Numbered from the stretch's first letter, positions 7,284 through 14,750 are shown. The stretch is 64,000 nucleotides of DNA from an uncultured Clostridia bacterium (GCA_948630815.1 CAPIEU010000001.1:15346-79345), one strand, 5' to 3'. Notes: generated from the sequence alone by a model not told the origin. Numbers and translations are program-made.

Positions 7284-10200
7284 ATGGAAAATAAACTTTA
7301 TGGTTTAACTAATCCTCAAAAGTCTATTTTACTTACTGAGGAGTTTTTCAAAGGAACTAATATTAATAATATTTGCGGAACTGCTATTATTGATGATGTT
7401 TTAGATTTTGAGTTACTAAAGAAAGCTATGCATATTTTTATTAAAAATCATGATAGTTTTAATTTTAAATTGGTTTTAGATAATAATGAACTAAAACAAT
7501 TTTTAGATGATGAACCTAATAATATTGATATTGAAATTGTTGATATTGATTCTAAAGATGATATTAATAAAATTGAAAATGATATGTTAAATCACGTTTT
7601 TGATATTTATAATGGTGATTTATTTTCTATGAAAATTTTTAGGCTAAAGGATAATACTGGTGGATTTGTTGTTAATGTTCACCATTTATTTGGTGATTCG
7701 TGGAGTTTGGGCATCCTTGCAAATGATATTGTTCGTATTTATTCTTGTTTGTTAAATGGAAAAGATATTTCTAAAAATAATGATTTTTCTTATTTGAATT
7801 ATATTGAAAGTGAAAAAGAATATTTAAATAGTGATAAATTTAAAAAGGATAAGGCTTATTGGGATGGTATTTTTGATACTGTTCCAGAACAGGCAACTAT
7901 TCCTGGTTCTATAGATACAGTACAAGATGATTTTTCTCCTAAGGCTAATCGTAAATTATATAATATTGATAATAACTTAATGGATAAAATTAATGATTTT
8001 TGTAAATTAAATCATGTGTCAGTTTTTAACTTTTTTATGGGTGTTTATGCTACTTACATTGGTAGAGTTAGTGGTGTAAATGATTTTGTACTTGGTACTC
8101 CAATTTTAAATAGAACTAATTTTAATGAAAAAAATACTACTGGTATGTTTATTAATACTGCACCTCTTAGATTTTTAATTGATGATAATTTAAGTTTTAA
8201 GTCTTTTGCTAGTAATATTGCAAAGGATTCTTTAGGTATGCTTAGACATCAAAAGTATTATTACCAAAATATTTTGGAAGATTTAAGAAAAAAAGATTCT
8301 TCGCTTCCTAATTTATATAATGTTCTTCTTTCTTACCAAGTAACAAGAGCTAATACTACTGAAGGTATAAATTATAATACAAGATGGAATTTTAATGGTA
8401 CTTGTAATGATGATTTGGATATTCATTTATATGATTTAAATGATACTGGTAGTATTAATGTTGCTTATGATTATAGAATTTCTAAATATGCTGATTGTGA
8501 TATTGAGGATATGCATAATCGTATTTTACATATGATTTGGCAAATTCTTGAAAGAGATGATATTTGCTTAAAGGATATTGAGGTTGTTACTAGTAAAGAG
8601 AAGTATGATATTTTATATAAGTTTAATGCTACAGATGTGAATTATCCATTAAAAAATAATTTAATAGAATTAATTGAGGAAACCGCTTCTATGTTTCCAA
8701 ATAGAATTGCAATTGAAAATGAAACTAATTTGATTTCTTATGAAGATTTAATAAAAAAAGTTTATATGTTATCAAATTATTTATTACATACTGTTAATCT
8801 AACCCCTAATATGAATATTGGTATTTTTACAGATAGAAATATAGAAACTATTATTGGTATTTTAGCTATTATGAAAATTAATTGTACTTTTGTTCCTATT
8901 GATCCTAATTACCCACAAGATAGAATTAATTATATGATTGAACAATCTGGTATAAATGTTATTCTTTATACAGATGAAAATTGTAAAAAACTATTTGATA
9001 ATAGCTTTAATATGATTTCTATTAATACATTAAATTATAATAACTTTCCTTGTACTATTGATACTTCATTTGATTATTGCTTAAATAATAATTTATACAT
9101 CATATTTACATCTGGTTCTACTGGAAAACCAAAAGGCGTTACACTCTCTCATAAAAATATGATGAATTTAATATTTTTTGAAAAAAACTTTACTGAATTA
9201 TTTAATCCTCAAACTATTCATAGAGTTTTACAATTTGCAACAATGAGCTTTGATGTAAGCTATCAAGAAATCTTTTCTACTTTGGTAACTGCTTCTACTT
9301 TAATATTAATAGAAGATGAAAGAAGAAAAAATATAAAAAAATTATCAGATTATATTTTATCTAAGAATATAGATACTTTATTTATTCCTCCAGCATATTT
9401 ACGTCTTTTAACAGAAGATAATTCAAGTATAGATATGTTCACTACTTGTTTAAAAAATATTGTTACTGCTGGAGAAGCCTTACTGATTACTACTGGTATA
9501 AATAAACTACTTTCTAATGGTATCAAAATACACAATCACTATGGTCCTGCAGAAACCCATGTTGTAACTACTTATACTTTATCTATGCCTACTGAAAATG
9601 TAAATGTACCTATTGGATATCCTATTTCTAATTCACAAATATATATTGTAAATTCAAATTTGCAATTATGTCCAACTAATGTTATTGGTCAAATTGCTAT
9701 TTCTGGTGCTTGTGTTGGGAATGGATATTTAAATCGTACAGATTTGAATGCTGAGAAATTTATAAATAATCCATTTAATTTAAATGAAATATTATATCTT
9801 ACTGGTGATTTAGGATACCGTGATAAAAATGGTTGTATACATTATATAGGTAGAGCTGATTTTCAGGTAAAAATCAATGGCTTTAGAATTGAGCTTGAAG
9901 AAATTGATCAAGTTTTATTAAACTACCCTACAATAAAATCTTCAACTTCTGTAATTCAAGAGGATAATAATAAAAAACATATTATCTCTTATTATACTAG
10001 TCAAAGTTCTATTGAAGAAAGTGATATATTAAAATTTTTAAGATTATCTTTACCAAATTATATGATGCCTACTAAACTAGTTAGACTAGAATCATTTCCA
10101 TTAAACCACAATGGAAAAATTGATAAAAAAATGTTACCAAAAGTAAATTTACTTGATGTTTCAAATGAATTTCTAGATGTCTCTAGCAAAACAGAACTTG

Positions 10201-14750: not shown

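Follow-up and report, generated by a model that had tools for sequence, protein, structure and literature searches.

We analyzed a 64,000-nt stretch of DNA from an uncultured Clostridia bacterium (GCA_948630815.1, CAPIEU010000001.1:15346-79345; the whole stretch is hereafter the window, with positions counted from its first letter), in which a gene for a bimodular nonribosomal peptide synthetase (NRPS; 7284-14750, + strand) is followed by genes for a histidine kinase with a seven-transmembrane (7TM) sensor domain and for a REC-HD-GYP response regulator. As judged by comparison of related loci, the NRPS and the 7TM sensor constitute one hypervariable allelic cassette that is exchanged horizontally. 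The NRPS itself is of a known kind; what appears to be new is its obligate, co-diversifying association with a sensor. The pattern of variation leads us to favor the view, which we rate at about an even chance, that the NRPS product is sensed by the co-inherited 7TM domain as part of a signal-receptor system.

The synthetase gene and its linkage to a 7TM kinase

The NRPS is encoded in a single open reading frame (ORF; 7254-14750, + strand, 2498 aa). An AAGGGAG ribosome-binding site lies ahead of the ATG at 7284, so that the 2488-aa form is the likely product, with the ATG at 7254 as an upstream alternative. Pfam searches matched Condensation, AMP-binding and PP-binding twice each, together with NAD_binding_4 at residues 2121-2367. 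These matches and the motifs within them upheld the order condensation-adenylation-carrier-condensation-adenylation-carrier-reductase (C-A-T-C-A-T-R) that had been proposed from the sequence of the window in an earlier reading (hereafter the original prediction). The first condensation domain (C1; 7284-8588, residues 1-435), presumed to be N-acylating, stands ahead of the first adenylation domain and retains an intact HHLFGD at residues 133-138. It is followed by an A1-T1 unit (8620-10420) bearing an A1 code for proline, by an elongation (LCL-like) condensation domain (C2; 10443-11744, residues 1054-1487) with HHIISD at residues 1181-1186 and strong matches to LgrA, TycC and SrfA-C, by A2 (11802-13262) with a methionine-type code, and by the carrier domain T2 (13290-13499). 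The carrier motif GGDSL, with its serine, occurs at residues 997-1001 in T1 and 2036-2040 in T2. Motifs A4, A5, A7, A8 and A10 were found in both adenylation domains, including both A10 lysines, and motif A3 reads FTSGSTGKPKG in one and YTSGSTGKPKG in the other. The protein ends in a thioester reductase domain (R; 13635-14747) with GSTGFLG at residues 2122-2128, Thr2251 within STLSV (2250-2254), and Tyr2285 and Lys2289 within YIYTK. The T2-R segment aligned end to end with an archaeal peptidyl carrier protein-reductase didomain (6vtj, E = 1.7e-73) and with the R domain of the Staphylococcus aureus aureusimine synthetase AusA (4f6l, E = 2.4e-43; see also 4f6c). The original prediction had stated that all core motifs are intact and that release is by an NAD(P)-binding thioester reductase, and had named hidden Markov model support for the R domain and the serines of GGDSL as points to check. 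Each motif was located in the 2488-aa protein, both GGDSL motifs are kept, and the R domain, matched by NAD_binding_4, is of the short-chain dehydrogenase/reductase type, related to that of AusA, and has its full catalytic motifs.

Compared with a 90%-identical orthologue (L011), the ratio of nonsynonymous to synonymous substitution rates (dN/dS) was 0.15-0.25 in each region of the NRPS, indicating that the gene has been kept by selection, and 0.07-0.13 in the kinase. By these measures the NRPS is intact and under purifying selection. Its best NCBIfam match was AusA (NF047350; 1437.8 bits, residues 943-2482 only). Since this score falls below the equivalog cut-off of 2500, the protein is a relative of AusA and not AusA itself. 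Homologues of 2460-2500 aa number in the hundreds in gut metagenomes.

The kinase gene begins 11 nt past the NRPS stop codon, behind a GGGGG ribosome-binding site, and its product has the Pfam order HisKA_7TM-PAS-HisKA-HATPase_c. The 7TM sensor domain (14762-15460, + strand, residues 1-233), with seven hydrophobic segments, is variable and moves together with the NRPS; the PAS domain, DHp domain and catalytic core (15461-16534, + strand) form the conserved part. An extra C near 16519 in ccaCggaaaagg (window 16500-16560) shifts the frame, so that the protein ends early, in DSTPRKRY, and is 10 aa short at its C-terminus; GTKFNIILPL, the ancestral ending, is still legible in the +1 frame to 16559. 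Since the same truncation is present in L011 and L015, and hence in three diverged lineages, it is a trait of the lineage rather than a sequencing error. A terminator-like hairpin (16565-16588) plus T-run (together 16565-16598, + strand) directly after the kinase is the only such site on this stretch, with none between NRPS and kinase, and probably ends the NRPS-kinase transcription unit. Beyond it lies the response regulator gene (16757-17812, + strand), encoding a putative cyclic di-GMP (c-di-GMP) phosphodiesterase in which the HD and HHEKYDGTGYP motifs are intact. The G+C content of the window is 18-30%, and a scan for sigma-70 promoters was uninformative in such AT-rich DNA (108 sites vs 99 expected). 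Rfam searches returned tRNAs only, with no riboswitch or T-box in the 330-nt interval between hisS and the NRPS.

A metagenome scan with the kinase alignment gave at least 544 matches, of which 80 loci were recovered; the human gut was a frequent source. The NRPS was found directly 5' of the kinase in every locus with upstream DNA (75/75), at a spacing of -32 to +186 nt, and the regulator was present in 71 of the 80, with most of the remaining loci stopping soon after the kinase. The same NRPS-kinase order was observed in 9 further relatives with 37-90% NRPS identity, among them, each with the regulator next in order, L011 (90%), L014 (72%), L005 (65%), L015 (57%), L001 (51%), L016 (47%), the trimodular L008 (41%) and L002, a Bacillota metagenome-assembled genome of 40% GC (37%). 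Trimodular relatives likewise carry the kinase. One of these, L097 (6001-18366), has its trimodular NRPS and 7TM kinase amid gatB, radA, disA and a peptidyl-prolyl isomerase gene, with no adjacent REC-HD-GYP regulator. Where the regulator accompanies NRPSs that are 41-57% identical, it is itself 88-100% conserved.

Taken together, these comparisons indicate that NRPS and kinase are one operon and that their linkage is universal among the relatives examined. The description of the NRPS as stand-alone in the original prediction is thus contradicted, both by the kinase found 3' of it throughout and by the co-variation of the sensor with the NRPS described below. The kinase 11 nt downstream, which that prediction had also noted, was confirmed as to position and 7TM type, but does not stand as an incidental neighbor. 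Neither the linkage nor a co-diversifying cassette was found in the searchable literature, which did not extend to the paper of Guo et al. 2017 on the gut family, and HisKA_7TM appeared there only in archaeal two-component surveys. In loci L005, L030, L035, L048, L064, L065, L080, L081, L083, L087, L088 and L093 the NRPS is split; such splits could be assembly errors, or natural non-producers that retain the receptor.

Mosaic structure and co-variation of synthase and sensor

We read mosaics from sliding-window nucleotide identity. Relative to L014, the sole replaced block was A1-T1 (~8620-10420), which carries a proline code in the window and a glycine code in L014. Relative to L015, the same A1-T1 block was replaced (proline vs threonine), together with a second block that runs from A2 (~11860) through T2 and R into the first ~700 nt of the kinase, ending at ~15460, or kinase residue ~233, where the 7TM domain stops. 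The A1-T1 block was ~60% identical at the nucleotide level to both L014 and L015, whereas its flanks were 85-95% identical; C1 and C2 were retained relative to L015 at 90-94% nucleotide identity (C1 91-94%) despite the exchanged A1. The surroundings were likewise conserved in L015, with identities of 96% for HtrA, 88% for hisS, 93% for the regulator and 92% for Tex, as opposed to 81% for the kinase and 57% for the NRPS. Both breakpoints of the A1-T1 block, ~8620 in the C1-A1 linker and ~10420 just past T1, were identical in the L014 and L015 comparisons. Since the same two positions recur in independent comparisons, they suggest natural recombination hot spots that bound an A-T exchange unit.

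The sharply bounded A1-T1 and A2-T2-R blocks, with C1 and C2 retained, resemble the exchange-unit recombination of NRPSs (microcystin synthetases, the XU concept), with the difference that one block here runs into the neighboring sensor kinase gene. As a natural catalogue of exchange units (A-T and A-T-R, with recurrent breakpoints), the locus may be useful for NRPS engineering.

Across the metagenome loci, A-domain codes were combinatorial. A1 carried codes for proline, glycine, threonine or valine, or any of several unassigned codes, and A2 was mostly DIYTVGI[VI]LK, with methionine-type, glycine and other codes also represented. Up to three alleles were found in one genomic background: L022 (A1 proline), L027 (glycine) and L031 (threonine) were 97-100% identical at the nucleotide level in their flanks, kinase core and regulator, but only 55-78% identical over the NRPS and the initial 500-800 nt of the kinase gene. 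The same-species pairs L043/L073, L052/L073 and L021/L032 were likewise polymorphic in synthase and sensor, with the kinase core and regulator conserved. Between different species, the pairs L052/L019 and L043/L024 had flanks of 50-78% identity, yet were 93-99% identical in NRPS and sensor. Recombination also occurs inside the island, as the A2 segments of L043 and L073 were 97-99% identical and their sensors still diverged. In each comparison examined, the right-hand boundary fell 450-1100 nt into the kinase, close to where the 7TM or PAS domain ends, and in none did a cassette boundary coincide with the NRPS-kinase junction.

The divergence of the sensor followed that of the NRPS. Sensor clusters mapped almost one-to-one onto pairs of A codes, and sensor and NRPS distances were correlated across 33 non-redundant loci (r = 0.82). 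In a partial Mantel test controlling for the kinase core, the correlation between sensor and NRPS was r = 0.78 (p <= 0.0005), whereas that between kinase core and NRPS, with the regulator controlled, was r = 0.15. Kinase residues 1-75 tracked A2 identity (0.48 vs 0.30). A rule in which the A2 code determines the sensor was considered and rejected: the sensors of alleles with threonine at A1 (Thr-X) were dissimilar to one another, and the window and L014 differ at A1 with the sensor unchanged.

Predicted product and proposed role

A-domain codes were extracted by alignment to GrsA-PheA, for which the reference sequence correctly gave DAWTIAAICK. The A1 code, DVQFVAHV(V)K, predicts proline. A1 carries both Val236 and Gln239, the signature of proline adenylation domains (PMC12283262), and its best single-domain PDB match was the proline module of TycB (361.9 bits), with GrsB1 next. 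The A2 code, DVFYLGGICK, predicts methionine, as it matches at 9/10 positions each of two codes reported for that residue, DVFYLGGVCK and DVWYLGGICK (PMC12283262). The terminal reductase in turn predicts release as an aldehyde, as in the two-electron reduction carried out by AusA, and the likely product is (N-acyl-)Pro-methioninal. The original prediction had offered a dipeptide aldehyde or a pyrazinone-type product. The former agrees with the product predicted here, and the resemblance to reductase-terminated dipeptide-aldehyde NRPSs was upheld; a classical pyrazinone, with or without N-acylation, is unlikely with proline as the first residue, since proline would offer no free amine once N-acylated, and otherwise only a secondary one.

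Proline is probably N-acylated by C1. In gut relatives, an N-terminal C domain is associated with N-acyl products. The starter type assigned to C1 in the original prediction is supported by its position and intact HHLFGD, but not by profile comparison. A profile of 16 C1 domains scored the LCL domains of TycC (156 bits) and BacC (155 bits) above the solved starter (Cs) domains of RzmA (114 bits), SrfAA (113 bits) and CDA-C1 (71 bits); comparison with the PDB, by single sequence and by profile, did not discriminate between the types and leaned toward LCL. A phmmer search with Sfp, AcpS and MbtH queries, a weak test confined to the ORFs of the 64-kb window, found no phosphopantetheinyl transferase (PPTase) or MbtH-like ORF, in agreement with the earlier statement that neither is adjacent. 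In the relative L099, the region 5' of the trimodular NRPS (3396-5666) encodes an AMP-binding enzyme (503 aa), an 80-aa ORF and a 136-aa condensation-domain fragment, and this trio could form an acyl-activation and carrier set for N-acylation.

Of the characterized systems, AusA (PznA) is the closest counterpart of the NRPS. Both have two A-T modules and a terminal thioester reductase, with two-electron release of a dipeptide aldehyde being predicted here, and the R domains align over their full length. Unlike AusA, the window NRPS begins with an additional C domain. The Pro-Met prediction, which argues against a classical pyrazinone, also sets it apart from AusA and the gut dipeptide-aldehyde family, as do the 7TM-kinase linkage and the allelic hypervariability, neither of which was found described for these NRPSs in the searchable literature. 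The gut-Clostridia family is reportedly the subject of Guo et al. 2017, and ruminopeptin that of Schneider & Balskus 2018. Genes for reductase-terminated NRPSs rank with the most widespread biosynthetic genes in the human gut microbiome, and both protease inhibition and pyrazinone signaling are under discussion as their native role. The clade-wide NRPS-kinase link and its allelic structure make this question directly testable.

A polymorphic synthase and sensor alongside a conserved kinase core and regulator, with alleles shared across species, lead us to favor a signal-receptor system. Module 1 would load proline, which C1 would acylate; module 2 would add methionine; and the NAD(P)H-dependent reductase would free the thioester as an aldehyde, giving N-acyl-Pro-methioninal. 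The NRPS would be co-transcribed with the 7TM kinase, with the REC-HD-GYP regulator next, and the self-made lipopeptide signal would be sensed by the co-inherited 7TM receptor. The result would be strain-specific ('pherotype') signaling with c-di-GMP hydrolysis as its presumed output. More tentatively, and at somewhat below even confidence, we extend this proposal to a large clade of low-GC Clostridia of the gut (sampled from human, chicken and rabbit), in which NRPS-made acyl-dipeptide aldehydes would serve as strain-specific autoinducers, allele and 7TM sensor being exchanged jointly and c-di-GMP turnover being controlled through the REC-HD-GYP protein. If this is correct, no earlier pherotype-style quorum-sensing or kin-recognition system would have derived its signal diversity from NRPS module swaps, and the widespread gut 'peptide aldehyde' NRPSs would gain a physiological role distinct from protease inhibition. 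The locus also suggests that uncultured gut anaerobes have social discrimination at the strain level together with c-di-GMP control.

Variation in synthase and sensor against a conserved core and regulator, with multiple alleles per species, is the pherotype signature of comQXPA and agr. The locus shares with Bacillus comQXPA and Staphylococcus agrBDCA the polymorphic signal synthesis and membrane sensor, the conserved kinase core and regulator, the presence of several alleles within a species and the occurrence of the same allele in different species. It differs in that the signal maker is an NRPS instead of a ribosomal pre-peptide with its processing enzyme, that the output regulator is an HD-GYP enzyme instead of a DNA-binding protein, and that signal-receptor specificity is here putative, suggested by statistical co-variation. 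A small-molecule synthase gene adjoining that of a multi-pass membrane kinase is also found in the Xanthomonas Rpf system of the diffusible signal factor DSF (RpfF-RpfC-RpfG) and in CqsA/CqsS, and the window regulator, like RpfG, is a REC-HD-GYP protein with intact motifs. The synthase here is an NRPS and not an RpfF-type enoyl-CoA hydratase or an aminotransferase, and the kinase, unlike RpfC, consists only of 7TM-PAS-HisKA-HATPase_c, with no hybrid REC or HPt domain. We know of no allelic cassettes as a feature of Rpf or Cqs.

Several observations weigh against a signal-receptor system. Known relatives of the NRPS have been described as protease inhibitors and not as signals. Since the sensor physically adjoins the NRPS, hitch-hiking can by itself give co-variation. 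The exchange of A1-T1 between the window and L014 left the sensor at background divergence. The sensors of Thr-X alleles from four genomic backgrounds were only 51-62% identical, so that no simple rule leads from code to sensor. The window lineage has a kinase that is 10 residues short at its C-terminus, and an NRPS split into 2-3 ORFs stands beside an intact kinase in at least 11 related loci. Finally, C1 is no closer to solved starter domains than to LCL domains, and in the 64-kb window neither an exporter nor an acyl-activating gene was found, nor, in the weak search above, a PPTase.

The first alternative, which corresponds to the published view of this NRPS class, is that a secreted aldehyde acts on serine or cysteine proteases of host or microbes, that A-domain swaps reflect an arms race, and that the kinase senses other cues (envelope, host) while its 5' end merely hitch-hikes with the NRPS. 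We regard it as unlikely, though it deserves serious consideration: the literature on relatives describes gut dipeptide aldehydes that inhibit proteases and N-acyl tails that stabilize the aldehyde, the R domain is related to that of AusA, a divergent gene for an HtrA-like serine protease is conserved upstream, and the L014 comparison provides an A1 swap with no sensor change. Hitch-hiking, however, fits poorly with a right-hand boundary that always falls inside the kinase and never at its junction with the NRPS, and with a sensor that has diverged as deeply as the NRPS although recombination inside the island is frequent. The cassette moves between species with the sensor attached, and the NRPS-kinase pair is kept even in the unrelated neighborhood of L097. 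The HtrA-like protease, for its part, does not co-vary, being 99-100% identical between different alleles.

A second alternative combines the two roles, such that the product acts mainly as an inhibitor or antagonist and is sensed by the kinase for feedback or self-protection only, with no social function. This possibility draws on the same linkage and co-variation as the signal-receptor reading, from which sequence cannot tell it apart, and accommodates the protease-inhibitor literature; as the cassette contains no resistance gene or exporter, we consider it improbable. That the locus is decaying or non-functional in the window genome, as the frameshifted kinase C-terminus, the negative PPTase search of the 64-kb window and the split NRPSs of related loci might indicate, is very improbable given that all NRPS motifs are intact, that dN/dS is low in both NRPS and kinase, and that three diverged lineages share the kinase ending.

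Other genes of the window

The HtrA-like serine protease gene (Trypsin_2 plus PDZ; 4228-5148, - strand) is divergent from the NRPS and in relatives is sometimes directly adjacent to it. Such a gene is also present upstream in L001, L008, L014-L016, L098, L099 and many of L017-L096. A D-Ala-D-Ala carboxypeptidase gene (Peptidase_S11 plus PBP5_C; 699-1945, + strand) is split into 699-1229 and 1394-1945. In the independent assembly L012 it is again split, with three genes called, and it is probably a pseudogene. A nucleotidyltransferase gene paired with one for a substrate-binding (HEPN-like) protein (3287-3986, - strand) is reminiscent of an MNT-HEPN toxin-antitoxin module; L012 and L014 share the pair with the window, whereas the otherwise syntenic L015 lacks it.

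The region from 48409 to 54540 contains dnaA (53203-54540, - strand), dnaN, recF and gyrB (48409-50328), and GC skew changes sign near 54 kb, indicating that a replication origin lies inside the window, ~40 kb from the NRPS. Between gyrB and gyrA (40329-42857) lies an island of 18-20% G+C (42891-48000, - strand) that may be a mobile-element remnant or a defense system. Its genes include those for a HerA/TraG-like P-loop ATPase (45125-46837) and a ParA/MinD-like ATPase (43721-45073), and a further two ORFs lacked Pfam matches.

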